From NCBI GenBank assembly GCA_023151315.1, contig JAKLJE010000012.1, forward strand, positions 27,584 through 91,583: 64,000 bases of DNA, read 5' to 3'. The translations under genes and the position numbers were made by a program. This stretch comes from Bacteroidia bacterium (GTDB lineage: Bacteria > Bacteroidota > Bacteroidia > Palsa-965). The notes below the pieces were generated by a model that saw nothing but the letters and a program-made list of their open reading frames with translations, was not told where the DNA came from and searched no databases. Positions 23,937-63,212 of this stretch are shown here, piece by piece. Numbering within the stretch: position 1 is the first letter of the stretch; each line of letters starts with the position of its first letter.

Positions 23937-25859
23937 ATGATTTCAGTGAGTAATTTAACAGTGGAATTCGGCGGTTTTACGCTGTATGATAACATTTCGT
24001 TCATGATCAATGCGCGGGATCGAATTGGTCTTGCGGGAAAGAACGGTGCCGGTAAATCTACGCTTCTAAAAATTATTGCAGGGTTGCAGAAATGCGATAC
24101 CGGAGACATCGGCATGCCCAATGGCTGCACTGTTGGATACCTTGCTCAGGATATGCAGCACAACATGGGTAAAACCGTGTATGATGAAGCAGCATCAGCA
24201 TTCAAAGAACTGCGTGAGATGGAAGAGAAGGTGGCTCGTATCACCAAGGAGCTTGAAACACGCACGGATTATGAATCGGATGAATACATGAATCTGATTA
24301 CAGAGCTGACGGAAGCAAGCGAACGCTCGCATGTACTCGGGGGCAGCTCATTGGAAGGGCAGATTGAACAAACATTAAAGGGACTTGGATTCAAGCATGA
24401 AGACATGCATCGGTTGATGGATGAGTTCAGCGGTGGATGGAGAATGCGTGTTGAGCTTGCGAAGCTATTGTTGCGTCGTCCGGATGTTTTGCTGCTTGAC
24501 GAACCAACGAACCACCTCGATATTGAATCTATTTTGTGGTTGGAGGAATTTCTGACAACATATGAAGGGTCTGTTGTGTTGGTGTCGCACGATAAATCAT
24601 TCCTTGACAACGTAACGAATCGTACTGTGGAAATTTCCATGGGCAAGATTCATGATTACAAAGCGAATTACTCAAAATATCTCGTGCTTCGTAAAGAGCG
24701 TCGCGAAACGCAGCTTGCTGCTGCAAAGAACCAACAGCGTGAGATTGAGAAAACGGAGAAGTTGATTGATCAGTTCCGTGCGAAAGCGAGCAAGGCTTCA
24801 TTCGCGCAATCGTTGATCAAGAAGCTGGATCGCATGGAGATTATTGAAATTGACGATGAGGACAATTCCACATTGCGATTCAAATTTCCACCGGCACCTC
24901 GTTCAGGTAAAGTTGTTGTGGAAGCAAACGACGTGACAAAAGTTTACGACGATAAAACAATTCTGAGTCGTGTGGATTTTCACATTGAACGCGAAGACAA
25001 AGTTGCATTCGTCGGAAAGAACGGAGAAGGAAAGTCGACAATGGTTCGTATGATCATGGGGGAGAAAACCACGAGCGGAACTGTTGGTCCGGGCTTCAGT
25101 GTTGAAGTCGGGTATTTCGCGCAGGACGATGCAGACAATCTTGATGGAAACAAAACCGTTTTCGAAACGATTGATGAGTTGGCAATCGGAGATGTGCGCA
25201 AACAGGTGCGCGGCATCCTTGGATCGTTCCTTTTTTCCGGTGATTCAATCGATAAAAAAGTGAAAGTATTGTCAGGCGGAGAGAGAACTCGTTTAGCACT
25301 GTGTCGTCTGCTGTTAAAGCCGCACAATTTGCTGATTCTCGACGAGCCTACCAACCACCTCGATCTTCGTTCGAAAGACGTATTGAAGCAAGCGCTGTCG
25401 AATTTTGACGGTACATTGATTGTGGTTTCACACGATCGCGATTTCCTTTCCGGACTGACAACAAAAACTTTCGAGTTCAAGGATAAACGCGTGAAGCAAT
25501 ACATCGGAGATGTGAACGAATTTCTTCTCGCTAAGAAAGCTGAAGATTTCCGCGCGATTGAACAGGCGGCAGCTTCAAATGTTTCCACGACCAATCAGGA
25601 CAAGAAACAGGAATCCGGCGATACACGAGATAAAGAGTCGCGTACATTGAAATCGCAGCTCAATACAGTGGAGAAGAAAATCGCAGAACTCGAGAAGAGG
25701 ATTGCGGATTTTGACGCGATTCTGAACGACGCGAACCGTTATCAGGAGTTGGTGAACGACCGCAAGAAGTTTGATGAATACGAGGCGATGAAGAAAGAGT
25801 TGGAGTCGAAAATGGAAGAATGGGAACGTATTCAGATGGAAATCGACAAATTGAAATAA
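23937..25859 (+). CDS. ABC-F family ATPase (tandem ABC domains plus C-terminal coiled coil, EttA/Uup/YheS-like).
   Basis: Two Walker A motifs (GKNGAGKST, GKNGEGKST). Two LSGG signatures. A K/E-rich C-terminal arm. Start at ATG 23937 because the first track codon is TTG. Confidence 0.85.
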   Translation: MISVSNLTVEFGGFTLYDNISFMINARDRIGLAGKNGAGKSTLLKIIAGLQKCDTGDIGMPNGCTVGYLAQDMQHNMGKTVYDEAASAFKELREMEEKVARITKELETRTDYESDEYMNLITELTEASERSHVLGGSSLEGQIEQTLKGLGFKHEDMHRLMDEFSGGWRMRVELAKLLLRRPDVLLLDEPTNHLDIESILWLEEFLTTYEGSVVLVSHDKSFLDNVTNRTVEISMGKIHDYKANYSKYLVLRKERRETQLAAAKNQQREIEKTEKLIDQFRAKASKASFAQSLIKKLDRMEIIEIDDEDNSTLRFKFPPAPRSGKVVVEANDVTKVYDDKTILSRVDFHIEREDKVAFVGKNGEGKSTMVRMIMGEKTTSGTVGPGFSVEVGYFAQDDADNLDGNKTVFETIDELAIGDVRKQVRGILGSFLFSGDSIDKKVKVLSGGERTRLALCRLLLKPHNLLILDEPTNHLDLRSKDVLKQALSNFDGTLIVVSHDRDFLSGLTTKTFEFKDKRVKQYIGDVNEFLLAKKAEDFRAIEQAAASNVSTTNQDKKQESGDTRDKESRTLKSQLNTVEKKIAELEKRIADFDAILNDANRYQELVNDRKKFDEYEAMKKELESKMEEWERIQMEIDKLK

Positions 25860-25885
25860 TCAGGTTGCGGGAATACTGTTTTTTA

Positions 25886-25893
25886 TATATTTG
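25886..25893 (+). promoter_or_regulatory. Candidate Bacteroidota sigma-A -7 box TATATTTG upstream of the hisG leader.
   Basis: It matches the TAnnTTTG consensus. A TTG sits at 25865-25867, about 18 nt upstream. The motif ends 4 nt before the leader ATG. Confidence 0.45.
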
Positions 25894-25897
25894 CCAC

Positions 25898-25954
25898 ATG
25901 AAAATGAACAACACAATGAAACATCACCATCAGTTTGCAGGGCGCAAGCTGTGA
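25898..25954 (+). CDS. Putative his leader peptide MKMNNTMKHHHQFAGRKL.
   Basis: An 18-codon ORF with CAT CAC CAT at 25922-25930. It lies between the promoter box and a terminator hairpin upstream of hisG. Confidence 0.5.
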   Translation: MKMNNTMKHHHQFAGRKL

Positions 25955-25979
25955 TTTTTCATTTGAGAAATATTTCACG

Positions 25980-26010
25980 AGGCTTGCTGTAAAGGCAAGC
26001 CTTTTTTATT
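25980..26010 (+). terminator. Attenuator/terminator hairpin upstream of hisG.
   Basis: AGGCTTGC (25980-87) and GCAAGCCT (25995-26002) form a perfect 8-bp stem with loop TGTAAAG, followed by TTTTTTATTT. A leader segment GCGCAAGCT (25943-51) can alternatively pair with the 5' arm. Confidence 0.7.
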
Positions 26011-26020
26011 TGTTAACGGT

Positions 26021-26887
26021 ATGAAAACAGAAACGAAACTCAGAATTGCAATTCAGAAGTCGGGACGGCTGAACGACGATTCCATCCGGATGCTGAAAGA
26101 ATGCGGAATTGAATTCGACAACGGCTTGAACAAACTGAAAGCATCCGCATTTAACTTTCCACTCGAAGTTCTTTTTCTTCGCGATGATGATATTCCGGAG
26201 TACGTTGAACAAGGTGTAGCGGATATCGGAATTGTTGGTGAGAATGTTCTTGTAGAATCAGGAGCCAAAGTGAAACTTATTGAGAAACTGGGTTACGGAA
26301 AATGCCGTTTGAGTATTGCGGTTCCGAAGGATGTTAAGTATTCCGGGATAAAAGATTTGAACGGAAAGCGTATCGCTACAACTTACAGTCGAGTGTTGCA
26401 GAAATATCTCGCGAAGAATAAAGTGAAAGCAGAGATACACGAAATCAGCGGATCAGTGGAGATTGCAACAGGAATCGGACTTGCGGAAGCAATCTGTGAT
26501 ATTGTAAGTTCCGGCAGCACACTGTTTACAAACGGTCTCAAAGAGGTGGAAACCGTGATGAAATCTGAAGCTGTTCTGATCGGTAACAATAAACTGAATG
26601 CAGCTCAACTGCGTATAGTTGAACGCTTGTTGTTCCGCATCCGTGCATCGAGAACTGCGAAGCGCAACAAGTATTTGCTTCTGAATGCGCCGGACAATAA
26701 ACTTGACACTATCTGCAAATTGATTCCGGGAATGAAAAGTCCGACTGTACTTCCTTTAAAGCAAAAGGGATGGAGCTCTGTTCATTCAGTTATTGATGAG
26801 GAAAAATTCTGGGACATCATTGAGCAGCTTCGTGACGCCGGAGCTGAAGGAATACTTGTAGTGCCAATCGAAAAAATGGTAGTGTGA
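26021..26887 (+). CDS. hisG: ATP phosphoribosyltransferase HisG (long form).
   Basis: N-terminus MKTETKLRIAIQKSGRLNDDS. 288 aa including the C-terminal regulatory domain. Confidence 0.9.
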   Translation: MKTETKLRIAIQKSGRLNDDSIRMLKECGIEFDNGLNKLKASAFNFPLEVLFLRDDDIPEYVEQGVADIGIVGENVLVESGAKVKLIEKLGYGKCRLSIAVPKDVKYSGIKDLNGKRIATTYSRVLQKYLAKNKVKAEIHEISGSVEIATGIGLAEAICDIVSSGSTLFTNGLKEVETVMKSEAVLIGNNKLNAAQLRIVERLLFRIRASRTAKRNKYLLLNAPDNKLDTICKLIPGMKSPTVLPLKQKGWSSVHSVIDEEKFWDIIEQLRDAGAEGILVVPIEKMVV

Positions 26888-28167
26888 TGATAAAGTACAT
26901 TGAATATCCGGATGCGGAGATGTTGAAGTTGCTTCTGCAACGTCCCGTGAACAACAATTCCGCTGACGAATCTGTAGTTGCTTCAATACTTGAAGATGTT
27001 CGTGCGAATGGAGACGCAGCAGTGCGACAATACACCGAGAAGTTCGATCACTGCACAATTGGTGAAATGCTGGTCAGTGAACAGGAAATTTTCAATGCCT
27101 ATCAGGCGGTTTCCATTGAATTGAAAGAGGCGATTGAGACAGCAAAAGCAAATATTGAACGTTTTCACCGAACGCAACACGTAGGCAGTGCACCGATAGA
27201 AACCATGCCGGGTGTTCGATGCTGGAGAAAATCGGTTCCAATTGAAACTGTCGGACTTTATATTCCCGGTGGTTCAGCTCCTCTGTTTTCTACTGTGCTC
27301 ATGCTTGCTGTTCCTGCAGTGATTGCAGGCTGCGGAAGAATCGTGTTGTGTACTCCGCCGGATAAGAACGGGAATATCAATCCTGCGATATTATATGCCG
27401 CGAGTACTTGCGGTGTTTCTGAAATTTATAAAGTGGGAGGAGTGCAGGCAATTGCAGCAATGTATTTCGGAACGGAGTCTGTTCCGCAGGTTTCAAAAAT
27501 CTGCGGCCCGGGAAACAGTTGGGTGACTATGGCGAAGCAACTCATCGCAAAAAACGGATTTCCTATTGACATTCCTGCCGGACCTTCAGAGTTGGCTGTG
27601 TATTGCGATAACACTGTTCCAGCAGAGTTCGTTGCAGCGGATTTATTGTCACAAGCTGAACACGGTGCCGACAGTCAGGTTCTTGTACTTTCAGAAGACA
27701 AAGGAATACTTCAGGAGATAATTGAAGCAATCAAAGTTCAGGTTGATGTTTTGCCTCGCAAGGAGATTGCGATGAAAGCGTTGGCGAACAGTGCAGCAGT
27801 TCTTGTAAAGAATCAGAATGATGCAATGGAAATCTTCAATAAGTATGCACCTGAGCATTTGATTCTCGCATGTGATTCCGCGGAGATACTGGCGCAGCAA
27901 GTAGTGAACGCAGGAAGTGTTTTCATTGGCGCATGGTCTCCGGAGAGCGCGGGAGATTACGCATCGGGAACGAATCATACATTGCCAACCAATGGAAATG
28001 CAAGAGGGTGGAGTGGCGTTTCTGTGGATACATTCGTTCGGAAGATAACTTTTCAGCACCTGAGTAAAGAAGGATTGCAACGAATCGGGAAGACGGTTGA
28101 AGTGATGGCGGAAGCAGAAGGCTTACAAGCGCACAGGAATGCAGTAACAATTCGTTTAGGAAAATAA
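26887..28167 (+). CDS. hisD: Histidinol dehydrogenase HisD.
   Basis: ATG at 26887 overlaps the hisG stop (TGATG). Roughly 426 aa with conserved HisD motifs. Confidence 0.9.
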   Translation: MIKYIEYPDAEMLKLLLQRPVNNNSADESVVASILEDVRANGDAAVRQYTEKFDHCTIGEMLVSEQEIFNAYQAVSIELKEAIETAKANIERFHRTQHVGSAPIETMPGVRCWRKSVPIETVGLYIPGGSAPLFSTVLMLAVPAVIAGCGRIVLCTPPDKNGNINPAILYAASTCGVSEIYKVGGVQAIAAMYFGTESVPQVSKICGPGNSWVTMAKQLIAKNGFPIDIPAGPSELAVYCDNTVPAEFVAADLLSQAEHGADSQVLVLSEDKGILQEIIEAIKVQVDVLPRKEIAMKALANSAAVLVKNQNDAMEIFNKYAPEHLILACDSAEILAQQVVNAGSVFIGAWSPESAGDYASGTNHTLPTNGNARGWSGVSVDTFVRKITFQHLSKEGLQRIGKTVEVMAEAEGLQAHRNAVTIRLGK

Positions 28168-28177
28168 AAGGAAGATA

Positions 28178-29245
28178 ATGTTCAATTTAGAGAAACTGAT
28201 CAGAGCTAACATTCTTGCACTGACACCTTACTCCTCTGCACGCGATGAGTTTAAAGGCGAAGCAAAAGTATTTCTTGACGCGAATGAGAATAGTTTCGGT
28301 TCTCCGGCTGGAGATTCGCATAATCGATATCCGGATCCGATGCAGAAGAATCTGAAGGATCGCTTGTCGGCAATTAAAGGCGTGCCGGCGGGAAATATTT
28401 TTCTCGGCAATGGAAGTGATGAAGTAATCGATATTCTGTTCCGCGTATTCTGCGAGCCGGGACGCGATAATGTGATTATTGTTCCACCCACGTACGGAAT
28501 GTATGAAGTGAGTGCCAACATTAATGCAGTTGAGGTGAGAAAAGTTCCGCTGACGGCAGAGTTTCAGCTGAACGTTGAAGGTATTTCCGAATCGGTTGAT
28601 GAAAATACCAAGTTGATTTTCATTTGCTCTCCGAATAATCCAACCGGAAACAGTATTGACCGAGATGATGTTGAATTCGTGCTCAATAACTTCAATGGCA
28701 TTGTCGCAGTGGATGAAGCGTACATCAATTATTCAAGGCAGAAGTCGTTTATAGCGGAGCTGACAGAATATCCGAACCTGGTTGTGATGCAGACGTTGTC
28801 TAAAGCATGGGGGCTTGCCGGTGTACGCATAGGAATGTTGTTTGCGTCAGATGAGATTATTGCCGTGATGAATAAGGTGAAGCCACCGTACAATATCGGC
28901 ACTCCGGCACAGGAGCTCGCACTAAATGCGTTAAACCGTATTCAGGAAGTAAATGAATGGATTCGCAGTACGGTGAGTGAAAGAGACAGGTTGGTACGTC
29001 AGTTGGCGCACAATCTGTTGATTCGAAAAATATATCCTTCAGATGCTAATTTTCTATTGGTAAAAGTTGATGAACCGAAGAAGGTATATAATTACCTTGT
29101 TGATAAAGGTATTATTATACGAGATCGTTCAGGGGTAACGTTATGCGAAGGATGTTTGCGAATTACCGTTGGTACTCCTGCAGAGAACGAAATGTTGATT
29201 ACCGAGTTGAATAACTATTCGAAACAGTTTTCATTTAATCAATAA
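28178..29245 (+). CDS. hisC: Histidinol-phosphate aminotransferase HisC.
   Basis: 355-aa class-II aminotransferase with the PLP lysine region TLSKAWGLAGVRIG. Confidence 0.88.
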   Translation: MFNLEKLIRANILALTPYSSARDEFKGEAKVFLDANENSFGSPAGDSHNRYPDPMQKNLKDRLSAIKGVPAGNIFLGNGSDEVIDILFRVFCEPGRDNVIIVPPTYGMYEVSANINAVEVRKVPLTAEFQLNVEGISESVDENTKLIFICSPNNPTGNSIDRDDVEFVLNNFNGIVAVDEAYINYSRQKSFIAELTEYPNLVVMQTLSKAWGLAGVRIGMLFASDEIIAVMNKVKPPYNIGTPAQELALNALNRIQEVNEWIRSTVSERDRLVRQLAHNLLIRKIYPSDANFLLVKVDEPKKVYNYLVDKGIIIRDRSGVTLCEGCLRITVGTPAENEMLITELNNYSKQFSFNQ

Positions 29246-29251
29246 AGCGCA

Positions 29252-30364
29252 ATGAAACAGAAACTGCTTTTCATCGACAGAGACGGAACACTAATTTGGG
29301 AGCCGCCGGATACTTTTCAGATTGACTCGTTCAGCAAGTTGAAATTTCTGCCGGGTGTTTTTTACTGGTTGAGAAAAATCGCCGAAGAACTGGATTATGA
29401 ATTGGTGATGGTCACGAATCAGGACGGTCTTGGCACGGCTTCTTTTCCTGAGGATACATTCTGGCCGGTGCAGAATTTCATTGTGCAATCAATGAAGAAT
29501 GAAAACATAATTTTCTCTGAAGTTTGCATCGACAGAAGTTTTCCTGCGGATAGTCTTCCGACGCGTAAACCAGGAACAGGAATGCTGACGAAGTATTTTG
29601 CTCCTGAGTACGATCTGCAAAATTCATTTGTGATCGGAGACCGTTTGACAGACGTGAAACTGGCGAAGAATCTCGGGGCAAAATCAATTTTCATCCGTAA
29701 CTATGATGAAGCGGGAGAATACGCTGCTTCAATAGATCTCATCGCCGAAGATTGGTCGCAAATCTATCAGTTTCTGAAACTTCCTCCTCGCAGAGTTTCT
29801 CATTCACGCAACACCAACGAAACCAGAATAAGCATTGATTTGAATCTGGATGGAAGTGGAAAAGGTAAGATACGAACGGGTCTTTCATTCTTTGATCACA
29901 TGCTGGAGCAACTGGTTCGTCACGGAAATATTGATCTTGATTTGGTAGCAGAAGGAGATCTTCACATTGATGAACATCACACAATTGAAGATACGGGAAT
30001 TGCGTTGGGAGAAGCGTTCACCGCCGCATTGAAAGAGAAGCGTGGAATTAATCGTTACGGATTTCTTTTACCCATGGACGATTGTTTGGCGCAAGTAGCA
30101 GTTGATTTCGGAGGAAGACCATGGATTGAATGGAATGCCGAGTTTAAACGGGAAAAAGTCGGAGACATGCCAACAGAAATGTTTTTTCACTTTTTCAAAT
30201 CATTCAGTGATGCGGCGCGATGCAATCTGAATATTAAAGCAGAAGGTGATAACGAGCATCACAAAATAGAAAGCATTTTCAAGGCCTTTGCGAAAGCGAT
30301 CAGAATCGCAGTGAAGCGGAATCCGGATGATAATTCATTGCCGACAACAAAAGGGATAATCTGA
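29252..30364 (+). CDS. hisB: Bifunctional histidinol-phosphatase / imidazoleglycerol-phosphate dehydratase HisB.
   Basis: N-terminal HAD motif [10 protein letters not shown]-terminal IGPD domain with [14 protein letters not shown]. Confidence 0.9.
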
Positions 30365-30371
30365 TTGACGA

Positions 30372-31481
30372 CTATTTCTGTTCTGGTGATTTAATCGGAT
30401 AATACGTGTTCAGAAGATTGTAGTACGGACCGAAATAGTGATGTGTGAAAATACTTTTACCGTTATCCGGAAAAAGTTTGTGATAGTTTTCGTCCGGCTG
30501 GAGAATAATAGGAATGCCGCATGGATAATAAGCCATGCTCTTTACGTATTTCTGTTTAGGCATACCCGGAATTCGCTTACGCACCAGTTTTCCTGTTTTG
30601 TGAGCGAGATATTTTCGGAATCTTCGTTCCGCTCTTTTTGCTCCGCGGTTCATTTTTTTAATCACGTGATTTCCGATGAGTTTGGCGGGGAATCCAATTC
30701 GCACGCGTTTATCAAATTCCGAAAAAGGATTTCCGGGGCTAAGATCATTTATGGTTTGTACACTGAATGGAACTTCCGGGACCCAATCAGCTGTGTTCAC
30801 TATTCTGAATGCCCATCCGCCCCGCGAAATAAAATCGAAGTCGTATGAATACTTCAGATTTCCGGGTTTTGGTGCAGCACTTCCGTAAACTTTTAATCTG
30901 ATATCTGCAGGAATCGTTACTCCTCGTTTGTAATGAAGATACGAGTACAGCAGAAACGAAATTGCTGCACCTTGTGAATGACCGACGATTATAAAATCGC
31001 GAATACCGTTTTTGTACTGTTCATTGATTTTATCAGTCACGTTTTTAGCAATGCTCGCGAGTCCGATTGTCCATCCGATATGCACATAAGCCAGTGAATC
31101 CTGCGCAAGTTTATAATCGAATAATATTCCGTTTCCCAAGTTCAGCTTTCCGGTTGCGGGAATCATTCCGGCATAGAAATTCTCCAACCAAGAATCATTA
31201 GAAGCAGTAGTTCCCCGCACGCTGATTACTGCCACTGAATCGTTGCTCAGCCACATGTCCCAGCGGTTGTCAAGTCCGCCAACGGTAGAGCGATGAATCA
31301 TATTATATCCGGCAGGATAAGGAACCCGCATTTTATTCCAAGGCGTGTCAATCTGATGAGCACTGATCTGAAACATTTTTCTGAATTCAGCACCGTCAAA
31401 ACCCGGTTGAATACGACGGGCTTCAGCCGCAGCATCAAACTGCAGCAGAAATAGTAGCGTTAAGACGAGAGCTCTGCCCAT
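30372..31481 (-). CDS. Secreted class-3 lipase-like alpha/beta hydrolase.
   Basis: Signal peptide MGRALVLTLLFLLQFDAAAEA. Nucleophile elbow IVGHSQGAAISFL. Encoded on the opposite strand between the two his sub-operons. Confidence 0.7.
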   Translation of the reverse strand: MGRALVLTLLFLLQFDAAAEARRIQPGFDGAEFRKMFQISAHQIDTPWNKMRVPYPAGYNMIHRSTVGGLDNRWDMWLSNDSVAVISVRGTTASNDSWLENFYAGMIPATGKLNLGNGILFDYKLAQDSLAYVHIGWTIGLASIAKNVTDKINEQYKNGIRDFIIVGHSQGAAISFLLYSYLHYKRGVTIPADIRLKVYGSAAPKPGNLKYSYDFDFISRGGWAFRIVNTADWVPEVPFSVQTINDLSPGNPFSEFDKRVRIGFPAKLIGNHVIKKMNRGAKRAERRFRKYLAHKTGKLVRKRIPGMPKQKYVKSMAYYPCGIPIILQPDENYHKLFPDNGKSIFTHHYFGPYYNLLNTYYPIKSPEQK

Positions 31482-31570
31482 GACGTGAAATTACGCTATT
31501 CCATGTAAGATTATTCTCATTTTGCCTGTGAAAATATTAAGGCTGGTATCATTTACGTGTGATCTACGAT

Positions 31571-31578
31571 TATATTTG
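31571..31578 (+). promoter_or_regulatory. Candidate -7 box TATATTTG upstream of the second his leader.
   Basis: TATATTTGCC occurs 4 nt before leader ATG 31583, identical to the hisG arrangement. Confidence 0.45.
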
Positions 31579-31582
31579 CCTT

Positions 31583-31630
31583 ATGATTCTTAAACACATC
31601 TCAGTACATCATCATTTCTTATCGTTTTAA
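31583..31630 (+). CDS. Putative second his leader peptide MILKHISVHHHFLSF.
   Basis: A 15-codon ORF with CAT CAT CAT at 31607-31615. It is followed by a terminator hairpin before the PabA/TrpG-type gene and hisH. Confidence 0.5.
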   Translation: MILKHISVHHHFLSF

Positions 31631-31664
31631 GGAAGCGATGGTAACTCTGTTGATATAAATCAGA

Positions 31665-31690
31665 ACCCGCTTCCAAAGCGGGTTTTTTAT
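31665..31690 (+). terminator. Attenuator/terminator hairpin upstream of the PabA/TrpG-hisH-hisA-hisF-hisIE genes.
   Basis: ACCCGCTT (31665-72) and AAGCGGGT (31676-83) form a perfect 8-bp stem with loop CCA, followed by TTTTTATTAT. GGAAGCG (31631-37), just after the leader stop, is perfectly complementary to CGCTTCC (31668-74) and can form an antiterminator. Confidence 0.7.
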
Positions 31691-31702
31691 TATCTTGAAA
31701 CT

Positions 31703-32287
31703 ATGCCTGATTTCAGAATCTTGATTATTGACAACTACGATTCGTTCACCTACAATTTGGTGCACGAAATCGGGCGAGTGTGTCCTGAGGCATATATACA
31801 CGTTGTGCAAAATGATGTTGTAGATCCGTCGGATTGTTTCAACTACAATTGCATTGTGCTTTCTCCGGGCCCGGGTATTCCTGAAGAGTCCGGAAAATTG
31901 CTGGATGTGATTCGGGTGGCGGCAGGAAAGATTCCTATTCTCGGAGTGTGCCTTGGTCACCAAGCTTTGAATGTTGCATGCGGAGGTCAATTGAAAAATC
32001 TCAGTAAGGTTTTTCACGGCGTGAGTACGCCGATCGTTGTTACCGACAAAGACTCTGTTTTATTCCAAGGTTTTGGAACACAGTTTAACGCAGGTCGCTA
32101 TCATTCCTGGGTGATCGATGAAGAAACGCTGCCGGAGTCATTTACGATTACAGCGCAGGATGAATCAGGTAATGTGATGGCCATCGAAAACAAAGAGAAA
32201 AAAATGTTTGGAATACAATTTCATCCGGAGTCAATCATGACACCTGAAGGCAAACGTATCATACGTAATTTTTTATCCGTTGTATGA
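31703..32287 (+). CDS. Class-I glutamine amidotransferase of the PabA/TrpG type (aminodeoxychorismate or anthranilate synthase component II).
   Basis: The hallmark IIDNYDSFTYNLV is present, with catalytic GVCLGHQ and a His at the expected position in FHPES. Distinct from the HisH gene that follows. Confidence 0.8.
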   Translation: MPDFRILIIDNYDSFTYNLVHEIGRVCPEAYIHVVQNDVVDPSDCFNYNCIVLSPGPGIPEESGKLLDVIRVAAGKIPILGVCLGHQALNVACGGQLKNLSKVFHGVSTPIVVTDKDSVLFQGFGTQFNAGRYHSWVIDEETLPESFTITAQDESGNVMAIENKEKKMFGIQFHPESIMTPEGKRIIRNFLSVV

Positions 32288-32868
32288 AGATCGTAATTGT
32301 TAAATATAACGCTGGCAATGCAACGTCTGTTCGATTTGCGCTGCAACGTTTGGGAGCAGACGCTGTAGTCTCCAATGAACCGGAGATTATCAAGAGTGCA
32401 GATCGTGTGATTTTTCCCGGAGTTGGCGAAGCGTCTTCTGCAATGCAGTTTTTACGCAAAGCCGGACTTGATAATGTGATAAAGGAACTGCGTCAACCGG
32501 TTCTGGGTATTTGCCTTGGAATGCAGTTGATGTGTTCCCAAAGTGAAGAAGGTAATACCGAAGCGCTTGGAATATTTCCTGTTCAGGTGAAGAAATTTCC
32601 TGAAGCTGAATTCAAAGTTCCGCATATGGGATGGAACACGCTGTCCAATCTTAAAGGACCATTGTTTGCAGGCGTTCCCGATCAGGCATTTATGTATTAC
32701 GTACATAGTTTCTATGCCGAACAATGTGCGTATACTATTGCAAGCACTGAATACATTCTGAATTATTCTGCTGCGTTGCAAAAAGACAATTACTTCGGTG
32801 TGCAATTTCACCCTGAGAAAAGCGGCGCTGAGGGAGAACGTATTATCAAAAACTTTCTGGAAGTATGA
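32284..32868 (+). CDS. hisH: Imidazole glycerol phosphate synthase glutamine amidotransferase subunit HisH.
   Basis: N-terminus MKIVIVKYNAGN. GICLGMQ motif. FHPEKSG motif. ATGA overlap with the upstream gene. Confidence 0.88.
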   Translation: MKIVIVKYNAGNATSVRFALQRLGADAVVSNEPEIIKSADRVIFPGVGEASSAMQFLRKAGLDNVIKELRQPVLGICLGMQLMCSQSEEGNTEALGIFPVQVKKFPEAEFKVPHMGWNTLSNLKGPLFAGVPDQAFMYYVHSFYAEQCAYTIASTEYILNYSAALQKDNYFGVQFHPEKSGAEGERIIKNFLEV

Positions 32869-33596
32869 TTGAGATTATTCCTGCAATAGACATTATTGAC
32901 GGCAAGTGCGTGCGACTTACCGAGGGGGATTACCAACGCATGACCGTTTACAATAGCGATCCGGTTGCGGTTGCGTCTCAGTTTGAACAGGCGGGTGTAC
33001 GCCGACTGCATCTCGTGGATCTGGATGGAGCGAAAGCGGGAACAGTGAAGAATCTTGCGGTACTGGAACGCATTGCTGCAGCTACTAAACTTATAATTGA
33101 TTTTGGTGGCGGAGTAAAAACAGAGACAGAAATGAATTCTGTTTTATCTGCCGGAGCTTCTTTTGTAACGGTTGGTAGTCTGGCTGCTAAATCGCCTGAA
33201 GTATTTGAAATGTGGTTGGCAAATTCCGGAGCGGATAATTTTTTCATCGGTGCGGATGTCAGAGCGGGAAAGATCGCAGTGAGTGGTTGGTTGGAGCAAA
33301 CAGATATCGAAGTGGTTGAGTTTATTCGCGATCTGATGAATAAACGGGTGCATTATTTTTTCTGTACGGATATTTCAAAAGATGGTAAACTGGAAGGGCC
33401 TTCGGAAGAGCTTTACAGAATGATCATCGCTCGCTGTCCGGGAATACGTTTGGTGGCGAGTGGAGGTATCAGTAATTGGGAAGATATTTATTGCATGGAG
33501 AAGCTGGGCTGTGAAGGTGTGATAATTGGTAAAGCATTTTATGAAAATCGTATTTCTATCAAGGAAATCGAAAAGTTTAATCTGAACGCTTTGTGA
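32865..33596 (+). CDS. hisA: ProFAR isomerase HisA.
   Basis: N-terminus [18 protein letters not shown]. (beta/alpha)8 fold. Overlaps the hisH stop. Confidence 0.88.
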
Positions 33597-33597
33597 A

Positions 33598-34353
33598 ATG
33601 CTGACGAAAAGAATTATTCCATGCCTTGATGTGAAGAATGGTCGCACCGTTAAAGGTGTCAACTTTGTAAATCTGCGTGACGCAGGTGATGCAGTTGAAC
33701 TGGCTTCGCGTTATGCGGAAGAAGGGGCTGACGAGTTGGTGCTTCTGGATATCTCTGCAACCGATGAAAAACGGAAAACATTAGCAGAACTCGTTAGGAA
33801 TGTAGCAGCAGCGGTGAATATTCCATTCACTGTTGGAGGCGGTATTGTCGGGATAGAAGATGTGCGTTCAATACTTGAAAACGGTGCGGATAAGGTTTCC
33901 GTGAATTCAGCCGCAGTGCGGGATCATCTGTTGATTGATGCGTTGGCGCGCGAGTTCGGAAGTCAATGCGTGGTTGTGGCGGTAGATACGCGTCGCACTG
34001 CTCAAGGGAATCGCGTATTTCTGAATGGAGGAAAGGTTGCAACCGAGCTTGATACTTTGGAATGGATCAAAGAAGCAGAACAACGCGGTGCAGGAGAAAT
34101 TCTTCTGACTTCCATGGATCATGACGGAACGAAGAACGGTTTTGATGTGGAATTTCTGAAAGAGGTTTCCTCATCCGTACGGATACCGGTTATCGCGTCA
34201 GGAGGAGCGGGCACAATGGAACATTTCGCAGAAGCATTTCTTAAATCGGGAGCTGATGCAGCACTGGCAGCGAGTATTTTTCATTTCGGTGAAATCCGCA
34301 TCAAGGACCTGAAGGATTATCTTTACAAGCAAGGAATTCAGATTCGCTTATGA
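33598..34353 (+). CDS. hisF: Imidazole glycerol phosphate synthase cyclase subunit HisF.
   Basis: N-terminus [23 protein letters not shown]. Confidence 0.9.
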
Positions 34354-35003
34354 GAACATTTACTATTGCAGCACTTCTGATTGTATTGATATCAGGATGT
34401 TCGCATTCCAGATTTGTGAAGCCGCTCAATCCGGGGCAACATGCAGTTACTGCTTCGTTCGGCGGACCATTGATAAAGTTCAGCGGTGCGGTAATTCCGA
34501 TTCCGCTTACTTCGATAGGTTACGGGTACGGAGTGGATACAAATCTTACGTTGTTCGGGAATCTGCACACTACTTCATTGTTGTACGGTACAGGACAAGT
34601 TGATGCCGGTGTGTGTTGGAATGTGTTTACCGTAAATCGTTTCGGTTTAAATGCTGCTGTGTCCGCGAATATGACCATGGATAAGTGGGAGAAGAATTTC
34701 AGAGCGTGGCCGGTAGTTGATTTGAATCTCACTTTCGACAGAAAGCAAGGCGGCTATTGGTATCTGGGATGCAATAACTGGATTGAGTTTACAAAGCAGC
34801 GCTCTCATGGCGTGAATCAGGAGCGACAATTGATATTCTCTCCGCAAATCGGGCATATGTTCCTGAAGGAAAAGTGGCGTTTCCAGATTGAAGCAAAATA
34901 CATTTTACCATACGTGAAGAACCAACCCAATGCAGTGGATTACATCGGGTTGAATCACTACGGAGCAACAGGAGTTTATTTCGGACTTTACAGAACATTC
35001 TGA
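34350..35003 (+). CDS. Hypothetical lipoprotein translationally coupled to hisF.
   Basis: Lipobox [10 protein letters not shown]. The ATGA overlap with the hisF stop, the beta-rich sequence and the C-terminal Phe suggest an outer-membrane protein. Confidence 0.5.
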
Positions 35004-35902
35004 TGAGAAATCTGATCATAGCATTCTTAAGCGCAGCGTTGATATTTACTGCCTGTCAGCGCCTTGATACCAATCTGTACAACAGAACTGATAAATTGAC
35101 GCAGTATGAACTGGATGATTACACAGGCGAACAGGATTTCAAACTGGATGCGTCTTACGATATTCCGGATTCGCTTGTTCATGTTTTCTCATTGCAGAGT
35201 CAGGCTGACGGAGAAGGCAGTTCGACCACGATTTATGCAATTTACATTGGTGAAATTTCCAACATAGCAACAGATACAGTGATTCTGTATTGTCATGGCA
35301 ACAAGTGGCATATGGATTTTTACTGGCAACGTGCGAAGTTGCTGGCTCATTGCGGAGGAAAGAATCGCTTTGGTGTGTTGATGATTGATTACCGCGGATA
35401 TGGAATGTCTGATGGAGATCCTACCGAAGAAGGTTTGTATGCCGATGTTGATGCTGCAATGAAATGGTTGCAACAAAACGGGATGAACAATGATCGTTTA
35501 GCGATCTATGGTTTCAGTATGGGAAGTGCCCCTGCAACTGAACTTTGTTCAAAGCCAAGAACATTAACTCCGGGCTGGTTGCTGCTCGAAGCACCGTTTG
35601 CGTCAGCTGCTGTTATGGTGGAAGACGGTACACAACTGGCAATGCCTTCTTCGTATTTCACCAATCTCGAGATTGACTGTGCTGAAGAAATTAAACGTTG
35701 CAATCAGCCATTGTTCTGGACGCACGGGCTAGCGGATATGTTTCTCGGATACAACACGCACGGTCAGGTTGTATATGATAACCATCGCGGTGTGTACAAA
35801 GAATCTCATCCGGTTGACAATGCCGATCACGGAGAAGTGCCTGCGAAAACAGGATTCACAACATATTGCAACAACATCAGCAACTTCATAACACAACATT
35901 AA
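35003..35902 (+). CDS. Alpha/beta hydrolase lipoprotein.
   Basis: Lipobox FTAC. Nucleophile elbow GFSMGS. TGATG overlap upstream and TAATG overlap with hisIE downstream. Confidence 0.6.
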   Translation: MRNLIIAFLSAALIFTACQRLDTNLYNRTDKLTQYELDDYTGEQDFKLDASYDIPDSLVHVFSLQSQADGEGSSTTIYAIYIGEISNIATDTVILYCHGNKWHMDFYWQRAKLLAHCGGKNRFGVLMIDYRGYGMSDGDPTEEGLYADVDAAMKWLQQNGMNNDRLAIYGFSMGSAPATELCSKPRTLTPGWLLLEAPFASAAVMVEDGTQLAMPSSYFTNLEIDCAEEIKRCNQPLFWTHGLADMFLGYNTHGQVVYDNHRGVYKESHPVDNADHGEVPAKTGFTTYCNNISNFITQH

Positions 35903-36495
35903 TGAAACCGGATTATTCCAAATATTCAGACGGACTTGTTCCCGCTGTAATTCAGGACGCAGCTACAGGAGTTGTGTTAATGCTTGGCTTTATGAATGAA
36001 GATGCATTGCAAGCAACTCATTCTTCGGGGAACGTTACGTTCTGGTCGCGCAGTAAAAATCGCTTGTGGACAAAAGGAGAAGAGAGCGGTAATTTCCTCA
36101 GAGTTGTCGATGTTCGTATTGATTGCGATAATGATACGTTGCTCGTTAAAGCAAATCCTGTTGGGCCGGTGTGTCATACGGGTGCTGATACATGCTGGAA
36201 TGAATTGAACACGGGAGATTTTCTCCGTCAGATGGAAAGAGTAATTCAATCGCGAAAAGGCGCTGATCCTTCCACTTCATATACAGCACAATTGTATTTC
36301 AAAGGAATCAACAAGATTGCTCAAAAAGTAGGAGAGGAGGCGGTTGAATTGGTGATTGAAGCGAAGGACGATGACAAAGAAAAGTTTTTGGGAGAAGCAG
36401 CAGATCTGCTGTTTCATTACACTGTTTTACTTTCTGCTAAAGGATTTGCAATTAAAGATGTGGAAGAAGTGCTGAAAGCACGTCACAAGAAATAA
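35902..36495 (+). CDS. hisI: Bifunctional phosphoribosyl-AMP cyclohydrolase / phosphoribosyl-ATP pyrophosphatase HisIE.
   Basis: HisI motif CHTGADTCW followed by the HisE helical domain. Start ATG overlaps the upstream TAA. Confidence 0.85.
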   Translation: MKPDYSKYSDGLVPAVIQDAATGVVLMLGFMNEDALQATHSSGNVTFWSRSKNRLWTKGEESGNFLRVVDVRIDCDNDTLLVKANPVGPVCHTGADTCWNELNTGDFLRQMERVIQSRKGADPSTSYTAQLYFKGINKIAQKVGEEAVELVIEAKDDDKEKFLGEAADLLFHYTVLLSAKGFAIKDVEEVLKARHKK

Positions 36496-36497
36496 CC

Positions 36498-37241
36498 CTA
36501 CATTTTTTTCTCTTCCACCATCTGTCCGCGAACGTACTCCTGTACTGCGATCAGTTTACCGGTTTCGTCGTACACATTCCACTTGCCTTCTTTCAGAAAG
36601 TTATCCAGTTCTTCATAATACTGCATCGTGCCTTCGGTTTGCATTTTGCCGTTTTCGAAATATTCCTTGTGTGAATACCTTTTCTTTTTCTTGTCGAGCA
36701 ACTGCATGTCGGATTGCAGATTTCCGTTTTCGTAATAAAACTGACGGAACTTCAGATAGTCACATTTATCAGCAAACTCTTCCATGAATTCCGGTTTACC
36801 ATTGGAATAATATTCCATGGTAATCATTTCCGCACCTTGATAATATGTGATGTTTGATCGAATCTGTCCGTTGTCGTAGTACAGAATCATTTGATAACGG
36901 AAATAGTCAAGCGACTTGAACTCGCGCTCCATCTGTCCGTTCTCATAATAGTTTTTGTAAGTGGTGAGCATTCCATCCTGATAATATCCGGAATGCATCA
37001 GCGTGCCGTTTTTGTAGTAATCTTCCCACCAACCTTGAGACGCGTATCCTTTTGGGTTATAGCGAACGGAATCACCGCCCATTAAACGGTTCAGCTTTTC
37101 ATAAATATCTATTCCCGAAGCGGAATCATAAATAGCTGCGAATTCATAATACTTCCGCGTGTCTTTCTGTTTACCGAACTGGGCAAAAGAAGGAACCGAA
37201 ATGAACAGTGCCAGAAATAAAATTGAAATCCGCAGAATCAT
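36498..37241 (-). CDS. MORN-repeat-variant (YwqK-like) secreted protein.
   Basis: Signal peptide followed by repeated YYENG/YYDNG/YYSNG units. Confidence 0.65.
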   Translation of the reverse strand: MILRISILFLALFISVPSFAQFGKQKDTRKYYEFAAIYDSASGIDIYEKLNRLMGGDSVRYNPKGYASQGWWEDYYKNGTLMHSGYYQDGMLTTYKNYYENGQMEREFKSLDYFRYQMILYYDNGQIRSNITYYQGAEMITMEYYSNGKPEFMEEFADKCDYLKFRQFYYENGNLQSDMQLLDKKKKRYSHKEYFENGKMQTEGTMQYYEELDNFLKEGKWNVYDETGKLIAVQEYVRGQMVEEKKM

Positions 37242-61789: not shown

Positions 61790-63055
61790 TCAGGCATTTT
61801 CGATTACTCGTTTCATCGCTTCCATTTTCAGCATGCACTCTTCATATTCGAGGTCAGGATCTGAAAGTGATGTTATGGCACTCCCGGCCATTACTGAAAG
61901 ATAACCCGTTTTTGCATTCCAAGTGATGCTTCTGATCACAACGTTGAAATCAAAATCGCCATTTGGACTGATTACACCTACGGTTCCGGAATAGATTCCT
62001 CTGGATTGCGTTTCAAATTCTTCAGCAAGTTGGAGTGCACGTCGTTTCGGCGCTCCTGTCATTGATCCCATTGGAAATGTGTTCCTGATGATTTCTGAAG
62101 TTGTAACGTTGCTGTTAACGCTGCAACGCACGGTTGAAATCATCTGATGAACAGTTTTGAAAGTATAAATTCCAAACAGCTCTGCAACCTCCACCGTTCC
62201 TCGTTCAGCAATTCTGGACAAATCATTTCTGACGAGATCAACGATCATCACATTTTCCGCGCGTTCTTTTGCATCATTCCGGAGTTCATCTTTCAGTCGC
62301 GCATCTTCAATCGTATCGTTGCTCCGTTTGCGCGTACCTTTTATCGGCTGCGAAATAAGCGTTGACCCTGTTCTGTTCATATATCGTTCCGGACTTCCGC
62401 AAATGAGCCAGGAGTTGTTGAATTTATATAACGCACCGAAAGGCGCATCCGTCAATTCCATCAGACTTAGAAAGGCATTAGCCGGATTGAATTCAGTATT
62501 CATTGCGCTGAAGCCCTGACAAAAATTTACCTCGTAAATGTCGCCACGCTGAATATGCCTTAGCAACGATTGCACTCTTGAAATGTATTCTTTTCTGGTG
62601 AGATGTGGTTGTAATTCGACTGAATTCCCGGAAGCTGTTCTCTTTCGGATGTGAGCCAGTCTGTACATGAATGTATTCAGATGAAATTCGCTTTGGTATC
62701 CGATTTCAACGTTGTTGCTTTCGCTGTGGCGAATTACAATTTCCGCATTGAAAAAACCATAATCAGGAAATCCATCAACGTTTGGGAATTGGCAGCGAAC
62801 ATCTGCAGTAGCGGATTTAAAGTTGTACCCGACGTGTCCGAAAACGTACTCATTCCTAGTAGGGTTTTTCAGATCAAGTGCAGCTTCAAAAGTTGCATTT
62901 GTTTCAGAATCGGAAAACGCTGCGATCACGCCGGTTTTCCACCCGTTCGCAGATTTGTTGAAGAATATCGCGTGTTTGTATGCAGAAGTTGCATCGGTCA
63001 GGTTTTCATTTGTGAATAGTCCGGCCATTTCCGGTGCAACCAGTTCGAACTTCAT
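61790..63055 (-). CDS. pabB: Aminodeoxychorismate synthase component I / anthranilate-synthase component I family (chorismate-binding) protein.
   Basis: Chorismate-binding motifs PMGSMTGAPKRRALQL and RGIYSGTVG. Start at ATG (MKFEL) with GGAGA 8 nt upstream; the first track codon is TTG. Confidence 0.75.
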   Translation of the reverse strand: MKFELVAPEMAGLFTNENLTDATSAYKHAIFFNKSANGWKTGVIAAFSDSETNATFEAALDLKNPTRNEYVFGHVGYNFKSATADVRCQFPNVDGFPDYGFFNAEIVIRHSESNNVEIGYQSEFHLNTFMYRLAHIRKRTASGNSVELQPHLTRKEYISRVQSLLRHIQRGDIYEVNFCQGFSAMNTEFNPANAFLSLMELTDAPFGALYKFNNSWLICGSPERYMNRTGSTLISQPIKGTRKRSNDTIEDARLKDELRNDAKERAENVMIVDLVRNDLSRIAERGTVEVAELFGIYTFKTVHQMISTVRCSVNSNVTTSEIIRNTFPMGSMTGAPKRRALQLAEEFETQSRGIYSGTVGVISPNGDFDFNVVIRSITWNAKTGYLSVMAGSAITSLSDPDLEYEECMLKMEAMKRVIENA

Positions 63056-63212
63056 TGGGTAAATCTCCGAAAAAAAAGCGATTTTCAACGAATAACGCGA
63101 TATTAACAGGAGTGAGGCCGTTGTTAATTTTCACTGACTATTTTCGCTTCCAAAAATTGGAAAGATCGGTGTGTTTTTACGTAACTTGCGTACCTGAATA
63201 ACCTCCTACCCA

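Follow-up and report, generated by a model that had tools for sequence, protein, structure and literature searches.

The split his locus and its two leaders

The element considered here lies in a 64-kb stretch of DNA of an uncultured Bacteroidota bacterium (contig JAKLJE010000012.1; the window, in what follows, means this whole stretch), in a histidine (his) biosynthesis locus that comes in two halves, each preceded by a short leader. The first half, hisG, hisD, hisC and hisB (26021-30364), follows the leader designated unit 1. The second half (31703-36495, plus strand) follows the leader designated unit 2, the subject of this analysis, and consists of a TrpG/PabA-type amidotransferase gene (trpG/pabA, 31703-32287), hisH (32284-32868), hisA (32865-33596), hisF (33598-34353), a gene for a 217-amino-acid protein of unknown function (34350-35003), a gene for an alpha/beta-hydrolase (35003-35902) and hisIE (ending at 36495), as assigned, like the genes of the first half, through Pfam and NCBIfam scans. 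Between hisB and unit 2 sits a class-3 lipase gene (Lipase_3, 30372-31481) on the minus strand, and because this gene is divergent, the trpG-hisIE block is out of reach of the hisG promoter and needs a promoter of its own.

A candidate for this promoter is found at the very start of unit 2. The putative sigma-A -7 box TATATTTG (31571-31578, plus strand; part of a longer form, TATATTTGCC, at 31571-31580), recognized by reading the sequence and invariant across the aligned relatives, is of the TAnnTTTG type, which is the sigma-A -7 element of Bacteroidota (PMC7366714). After a gap of 4 nt follows the ATG of a leader open reading frame (ORF) of 15 codons plus TAA (31583-31630, plus strand), encoding MILKHISVHHHFLSF, whose codons 9-11 are CAT CAT CAT (31607-31615), with CATCAT invariant in seven aligned relatives, and which contains an additional His codon, CAC, at 31595-31597. 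The leader thus carries three His codons in a row, where a leader-peptide attenuator needs at least two consecutive codons for the amino acid that its operon produces, with hisH, hisA, hisF and hisIE lying downstream. Downstream of the leader ORF and ahead of the first structural gene, which is the place of the terminator in an attenuator, a terminator scan recognizes an intrinsic terminator (31662-31689, plus strand), composed of an 11-pair hairpin (31662-31686) with a 3-nt loop and a T-run; its core, ACCCGCTT-CCA-AAGCGGGT, spans 31665-31683 and is followed by T5ATTAT. Of the 15 sites returned for positions 25000-37000, this hairpin is listed first, and its counterpart in unit 1 (25979-26003) is listed second. 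The T-run ends only 13 nt before the trpG ATG, with no TAnnTTTG box in the gap, and a strong terminator that stands between the first gene and its only plausible promoter must be conditional. An earlier, sequence-only reading had described the leader ORF with its three CAT codons, the box 4 nt before the ATG and a hairpin of 8 bp with its T-run; all of these are present where it had placed them, the stem being three pairs longer than described.

As to the argument that such an arrangement could hardly arise by chance, also advanced in that reading, the numbers agree. The motif TATATTTGCCNNATG occurs exactly twice in the 64 kb, with 0.1 occurrences expected (one mismatch allowed). Both strands of the window together hold 23 TAnnTTTG boxes, and only the two belonging to the leaders with three His codons (HHH) have the ATG of a short ORF at 4 nt, both of these short ORFs lying directly upstream of his genes. 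With His at 1.8% of codons, the probability of HHH within 15 amino acids is approximately 8e-5. The 108-nt leader also folds more stably than dinucleotide-shuffled versions of itself (z = -4.2).

The position of the box allows a prediction of the transcription start. In the start-site map of Flavobacterium psychrophilum, obtained by differential RNA sequencing, TAnnTTTG occupies positions -12 to -5, and at the hisG promoter of this species, which carries the same TATATTTG, the mapped transcription start site is the fifth nucleotide after the G of the box (PMC9723704). This spacing, if applied to unit 2, places +1 at the A of the ATG at 31583, and, if applied to unit 1, at the ATG at 25898, so the leader ORFs of both units are predicted to be translated from leaderless mRNAs. 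Among the Bacteroidota trp and his leaders with an exact box upstream, the gap between box and ATG is mostly 4-10 nt, and such leader ORFs may typically be leaderless or nearly so. An exact -33 TTTG element was not found at the expected distance. Two further genes of the window show a similar arrangement: TATCTTTG-N4-ATG (46756/46768) marks the start of a 956-codon gene whose product has a signal-peptide-like N-terminus, and TACCTTTG-N6-ATG (23923/23937) marks the start of an ABC-F ATPase gene (ATG at 23937, end at 25859) located upstream of unit 1. These genes are likewise predicted to have leaderless or near-leaderless mRNAs, which, if true, would be unusually frequent for Bacteroidota.

Unit 1 (25886-26010, plus strand), upstream of hisGDCB, has the same layout, with the same box at 25886-25893, a gap of 4 nt, an ATG at 25898, the leader peptide MKMNNTMKHHHQFAGRKL and the terminator at 25979-26003, and its RNA can form a first hairpin, CAGTTTGC with GCAAGCTG, and an alternative pairing of GCAAGC with GCTTGC. 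Two further in-frame ATGs are present in its ORF, at codons 3 and 7. The hisG leader is almost invariant in relatives (MKMNNTM[KNS]HHHQFAGRKL), and reads MKMISTAKHHHGLATRKL in the more distant locus L178. The comparison of the two units, which the sequence-only reading had recommended, confirms the common layout, both units measuring 125 nt from box to T-run, but beyond the box the similarity is weak (z of approximately 4 versus mononucleotide shuffles; 20.5 bits, E = 0.03, in a covariance model search). An origin of the two units by duplication was considered and not retained, the similarity beyond the box being too weak for such a claim.

Competing pairings, conservation and rival readings

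The RNA of unit 2 can be divided into segments with mutually exclusive partners. Segment 1 (31608-31621, plus strand), comprising the His codons and the nucleotides that follow, is the 5' side of a 1:2 hairpin that appears, together with the terminator, in the minimum-free-energy (MFE) and centroid folds and in the RNAalifold consensus of clades A and B. Segment 2 (31628-31642, plus strand), comprising the stop codon and GGAAGCGATGGT, is the partner of either segment 1 or segment 3. Segment 3 (31665-31674, plus strand), with the sequence ACCCGCTTCC, is the terminator 5' arm and the antiterminator partner of segment 2. At the heart of the 2:3 pairing, GGAAGCG (31631-31637) is perfectly complementary to CGCTTCC (31668-31674), a complementarity proposed as the antiterminator from the letters alone and now found to be significant: the duplex between segment 2 and the terminator 5' arm amounts to -15.1 kcal/mol, and only 0.5% of shuffled sequences do as well (p = 0.005). 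The corresponding values are 0.017 for L178, 0.019 for unit 1 and 0.028 for L088, a relative that retains trp genes at this locus. As equilibrium folds of the complete masked leader could not separate the states, folds of the nascent RNA, extending to the terminator loop, were used instead. When a ribosome is mimicked by masking the last His codon, the 2:3 pairing forms, at -16.5 kcal/mol in the window and at -10.8 to -13.0 kcal/mol in clade B; moving the mask to the stop codon abolishes this pairing and leaves the terminator 5' arm free; and with no mask, the clade B leaders fold into 1:2. The same three-state folding is seen with unit 1 and with the distant relative L178. The mutually exclusive placement of 1:2 and 2:3 that is characteristic of attenuators is thus found in silico.

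These observations are best explained, in our view, by transcription attenuation through a leader peptide, in which the ribosome translating the leader of unit 2 would sense charged tRNA-His and thereby control expression of the second half of the split his operon, a reading to which we assign a probability of roughly 80%. Transcription would start from the TATATTTG box, with the A of the ATG at 31583 as the most likely +1, and a ribosome would load on the 5'-terminal AUG. With His-tRNA plentiful, the ribosome would reach the TAA at 31628-31630 and cover segment 2 (GGAAGCGATGG), the terminator at 31662-31686 with its T-run would form, and transcription would end 13 nt before trpG/pabA. With His-tRNA scarce, the ribosome would stall on CAT CAT CAT (31607-31615), holding segment 1 open and leaving segment 2 free to pair with segment 3, and the polymerase would read through into trpG/pabA-hisH-hisA-hisF and on to hisIE. 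That a His attenuator controls these genes was already the proposal of the sequence-only reading, and it is supported by the his genes downstream, by the masked folds and by the conservation of both the position and the logic of the element. If so, the insertion of an oppositely oriented gene would have split the his operon without freeing either half from His control, each half having an attenuator of its own.

The conservation was assessed in relatives gathered through protein searches with TrpG and contig look-ups, all of which turned out to be Bacteroidota. A scan of genome contigs with TrpG returned relatives of no more than 54% identity, mostly with TrpG proteins of trp operons, which were used for the survey of trp leaders described below, and a scan of metagenome contigs with the TrpG alignment, whose patterns were too general, recovered no close relative. 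Four other lineages possess the gene order of the window: clade B (L081-L085, L170-L173), clade C (L086/L087, L174), clade F (L178) and L177, the last coming from a second sample and having a leader identical to that of the window. The entire order from trpG to hisIE is present in L081, L083, L086, L170, L172 and L178. In every lineage the box, a start codon 4-5 nt further on, an ORF of 14-15 codons with HH or HHH, and the terminator are retained, while the peptides vary: MFKQINQWNHHCSSN, MFMQIIQWNHHCTSL, MLKQINQGNHHCSSI and MFMQINKWNHHCTSI in clade B, (GTG)KKNSKSQNHHHRI and (GTG)KMNSKSQNHHHRM in clade C, and MSAQLSTIHNVHHAH in clade F. The length is 15 codons in clades B and F and 14 in clade C, that is, 15 in three of the four other lineages. 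The terminator stem is 100% paired in eight distinct homologues, with three pairs changed on both sides. As the pairing register can shift from clade to clade along the CAUCAUCAU repeat, conservation was judged at the level of structure rather than by column-wise covariation. All this is seen against a background of a highly divergent leader DNA (50-57% identity, the most divergent stretch of the locus). Comparison with the window gives identities of mostly 77-97% for the flanking proteins of clades B and C, with TrpG at 64-70% and HisH at approximately 65%, and of 49-78% for all proteins of clade F, with TrpG at 57%; taken over clades B, C and F, the flanking proteins range from 63 to 97% identity. 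Of the conservation that the sequence-only reading had set as a check, the terminator and the ORF thus stood, but two rather than three consecutive His codons are common among the relatives, and the antiterminator is at chance level in some clades.

A number of observations weigh against attenuation as described. Leaderless mRNAs constitute only about 4-6% of mRNAs in two start-mapped Bacteroidota (PMC7366714, PMC9723704), and the leaders of clade C begin with GTG. The His run counts three codons in unit 2 and two in clade B, versus seven in enterobacterial hisL, which may make for a modest sensitivity. The antiterminator complementarity is marginal in clade B (p = 0.05-0.135) and in L089, another trp-carrying relative (p = 0.11), and clade C does no better than shuffled sequences (p = 0.37). 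The nascent RNA of the window adopts the 2:3 pairing as its MFE structure even without any ribosome, so untranslated transcripts might read through rather than being super-attenuated. Once the full terminator is present, the equilibrium fold favors it in nearly all masked states, and the switch must therefore be kinetic, as in classical attenuators. Finally, while RNAalifold recovers both the 1:2 hairpin and the terminator for clades A and B, it finds zero compensatory changes in 1:2, and as CAUCAU is part of this stem, its conservation cannot tell a coding constraint from a structural one.

This last point opens the way to the best surviving of the rival readings, according to which the terminator is a real conditional attenuator, but one switched by an RNA-binding protein, an uncharged tRNA or a small ligand, the His codons being kept as part of the 1:2 stem. 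CAUCAU is indeed paired with GAUGG in every fold, there is no covariation to separate the two constraints, and the peptide is not conserved outside HH. We nevertheless consider a switch of this kind improbable, as no riboswitch or T-box model matches the leader, even at E<=10, and as clades A, B and F preserve the length of the ORF and the position of its stop beside segment 2 despite the change in sequence. In addition, trp-carrying relatives have HWWH at the same place, suggesting that the codons follow the amino acids of the operon and not the stem, and the HHH of unit 1 lies in a different stem context.

A somewhat less probable rival is that unit 2 is a decaying relic of an ancestral trp-his attenuator, now a leaky, constitutive 5' region with no useful His sensing. 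The leader-trpG part is the most divergent of the locus (50-60% nucleotide identity, versus approximately 80% in the flanks), and an antiterminator that is the MFE structure of the window without a ribosome would fit leakiness, as would the state of clade C, with its weak U-tract and non-significant antiterminator. Yet no other clade matches the window in the strength of its terminator or the significance of its antiterminator, the window has gained His codons rather than losing them (HHH and an extra H, where clade B has HH), all five orphan-trpG lineages examined have an intact ORF, and the leader is identical in the second sample, L177. The clade C leader itself (L086 7860-7990; L174 398-528) has its GTG 5 nt after the box and the U-tract CTTTGTTGCTT, and its candidate antiterminator pairs GTGTGA with TCACAC of the terminator loop; it may work differently or may be decaying.

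Least probable of all is an independent small gene, for a small RNA of about 105 nt or for the 15-amino-acid peptide, with its own promoter and terminator and with the downstream genes transcribed from elsewhere, since, although the box and the strong terminator do bound a compact unit of about that size and a permissive Rfam scan reveals weak, sub-threshold similarity to small-RNA models, the 13 nt before trpG hold no box, the upstream gene is divergent, leaving trpG-hisHAF-IE promoterless in the absence of read-through, the peptide is not conserved, and the same design recurs upstream of hisG.

Trp/His leaders of trp-his operons and the origin of unit 2

The relatives that carry trp genes at the same locus point to where the proposed His attenuator may have come from. 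In L088, whose HisG is 98% identical to that of the window, hisGDCB is followed by the lipase gene on the minus strand, a leader, and trpE-trpG-trpD-trpC-trpF-trpB, up to the end of the contig; L175, of the same clade (TrpG 91% identical), has trpG-D-C-F-B-A-aroG-hisH-hisA-hisF; and L089 has the lipase gene on the minus strand, a leader, and trpEGDCFBA-aroG-hisHAF-IE. The order hisGDCB-trpEGDCFBA-hisHAFIE is also found in Chitinophaga, Flavihumibacter, Pontibacter and others, hisGDCB being a frequent upstream neighbor of trp-his super-operons, in some of which aroG stands before hisH. The leaders of L088 (5730-5870) and L089 (5810-5945), located at the position of unit 2, encode MKMNLINKHWWHNLKNLQTV and MNKITINKHWWHNSNSRIV, both with two Trp codons between two His codons (HWWH). 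The lipase gene that splits the his cluster is at the same spot in all relatives of the group, those with trp operons included. Clades A, B, C and F all conserve the two genes at 34350-35902, which are absent from L089, in which hisIE directly follows hisF.

The Trp/His leaders and unit 2 resemble each other detectably. A covariance model trained on the window and clade B only was searched against 1.5 Mb of loci, and its best matches outside the training set were the clade C leaders (40.7-44.3 bits), followed by L088 (32.5 bits, E of approximately 8e-4) and L089 (25 bits). The cores of the peptides align as well, I-N-K-H-W-W-H-N of L089 with I-N-K-W-N-H-H of L172. While the leaders of trp-his loci read K-H-W-W-H-N, in close (HisG 98% identical) and in more distant relatives, those of the lineages with trpG only read W-N-H-H, N-H-H-H, V-H-H-H or H-N-V-H-H-A-H. 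The sequence-only reading had called unit 2 a second, independent attenuator; it is a second unit, but its independence is doubtful, as it stands at the site of an HWWH leader to which it is detectably similar.

A wider survey of trp leaders is consistent with a double specificity of such elements. A His codon is found beside the Trp run in seven of seven operons with hisH downstream, versus 7 of 26 operons without (Fisher p = 8e-4, with phylogeny ignored), and L003 (HWRWH) and L088 (HWWH), both outside this tally, fit the pattern. Examples of trp-his operon leaders upstream of trpE with a His codon beside the Trp run (HWWH, WWWH) are L003, L011, L012, L020, L035, L042 and L058, and most trp operons without downstream his genes have WWWN/L/S/Q/F. 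These data suggest bivalent Trp/His attenuation in trp-his super-operons, and unit 2 is probably, to judge by the sequence comparisons, a descendant of a bivalent leader of this kind, from which Trp codons were lost, and in which His codons were gained, after the loss of trpE and of trpD-aroG. Whether it is, more specifically, a natural attenuator whose amino-acid specificity was rewritten as the gene content of the operon changed is a question on which we see the odds as evenly balanced. Bivalent attenuation followed by re-tuning to His upon trp loss is in any case a testable idea and, if it is true, the strains in question represent a ready series for learning how codon content sets the specificity of an attenuator.

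The window is 87% identical in nucleotide sequence to the trp-containing clade D up to position 31408, and 90% identical from 32284 on. The intervening leader-trpG segment (31409-32283, compared with L088, L175 and L081), on the other hand, hardly resembles clade D: the TrpG of the window is only 59% identical to that of clade D, and its closest match, at 70%, is in clade B. In clades B, C and F, in turn, HisH is only approximately 65% identical to that of the window, with HisA and HisF of clade B at approximately 88%. A simple recent deletion in a clade-D-like ancestor is ruled out by the 59% identity of TrpG, given flanks of approximately 87-90% nucleotide identity. The locus is a mosaic, to which either recombinational exchange of a leader-trpG cassette or very fast divergence of the segment may have led.

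As to the function of the orphan trpG, the window also contains, at 61790-63088 on the minus strand, a gene for a PabB-like protein (aminodeoxychorismate synthase component I; TIGR00553, 305 bits versus a cut-off of 328), and its presence suggests that the TrpG-type gene at 31703-32287 now works as PabA. If this is true, the synthesis of para-aminobenzoate and folate would have been placed under histidine control by historical accident, which calls for caution on the part of annotators.

Relation to known attenuators and RNA families

By covariance-model score, unit 2 falls outside the curated RNA families. Rfam scans were carried out at the gathering threshold on the window and on seven loci, and at E<=10 on two stretches, including 25600-32000, and no family was matched, the weak matches being to Trp_leader (24.7 bits) and to assorted small-RNA models, mostly driven by the terminator. 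His_leader (RF00514) gave no match in the window at gathering, nor at E<=10 in 25600-32000, and T-box and riboswitch families were absent from the matches at either setting. Bacteroid-trp (RF01692) also gave no match in the window, and the Trp/His leader of L089 scored 20.4 bits with this model, versus a gathering threshold of 49. The literature searched, which included few subscription-journal papers, yielded no account of an internal, second His attenuator or of bivalent Trp/His leaders in Bacteroidota. Attenuators were reportedly predicted in Bacteroidetes/Chlorobi by Vitreschak et al. in 2004.

The classical model is enterobacterial hisL, the leader represented by His_leader (RF00514), in which a race of the ribosome decides on read-through (summarized in PMC3896937, PMC1183508). 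Unit 2 shares with it the short ORF with consecutive His codons, the set of 1:2, 2:3 and 3:4 hairpins, and the intrinsic terminator before his genes. It differs in showing no detectable similarity in sequence or by covariance model, in having three His codons rather than seven, and in having a Bacteroidota promoter and a predicted 5'-terminal AUG instead of a leader with a Shine-Dalgarno sequence; it also would govern only the distal half of a split operon, along with a pabA-like gene.

Within the same phylum, F. psychrophilum has leader-peptide attenuators for His, Phe, Trp and Ile, located at hisG, pheA, trpE and ilvE, respectively, and its hisG element has a mapped transcription start site and shows condition-dependent read-through (PMC9723704). 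With this element (table S7 of PMC9723704) unit 2 has in common the TATATTTG box, a His-rich leader (theirs being MSLNQLHHHHFHICSQAKC) and a terminator. The F. psychrophilum element, however, has a 5' untranslated region of 15 nt and precedes hisG, while unit 2 precedes trpG-hisH, has no predicted 5' untranslated region and is different in sequence. Another relevant case is Bacteroid-trp (RF01692; Weinberg 2010, PMC2864571), which is brought to mind by the HWWH leaders at the exact position of unit 2 in the nearest relatives. Dozens of Bacteroidota loci have a leader ORF with WW or WWW ahead of trpE. The leader of unit 2, in contrast to Bacteroid-trp, has no Trp codon, and trpE, D, C, F, B and A have been lost from the operon of the window.

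The predicted start of unit 2 at its own AUG has a parallel in the leaderless polycysteine small ORFs of mycobacteria (bioRxiv 10.1101/834739), in which the ORF is at the 5' end of the transcript, a single amino acid is sensed and an operon is controlled, and which start with either AUG or GUG. The mycobacterial elements belong to another phylum and respond to another amino acid, and the leaderless state of unit 2 is predicted from promoter spacing only. Another testable idea, suggested by the comparative data, is that leader peptides in the Shine-Dalgarno-poor Bacteroidota are often translated from 5'-terminal AUGs; the strains discussed here, if unit 2 was indeed re-tuned as proposed, would also bear on how leaderless translation is coupled to transcription in a phylum that does without Shine-Dalgarno initiation. 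Overall, unit 2 adds to these known systems a well-delimited Bacteroidota His leader that lies outside all curated RNA families.

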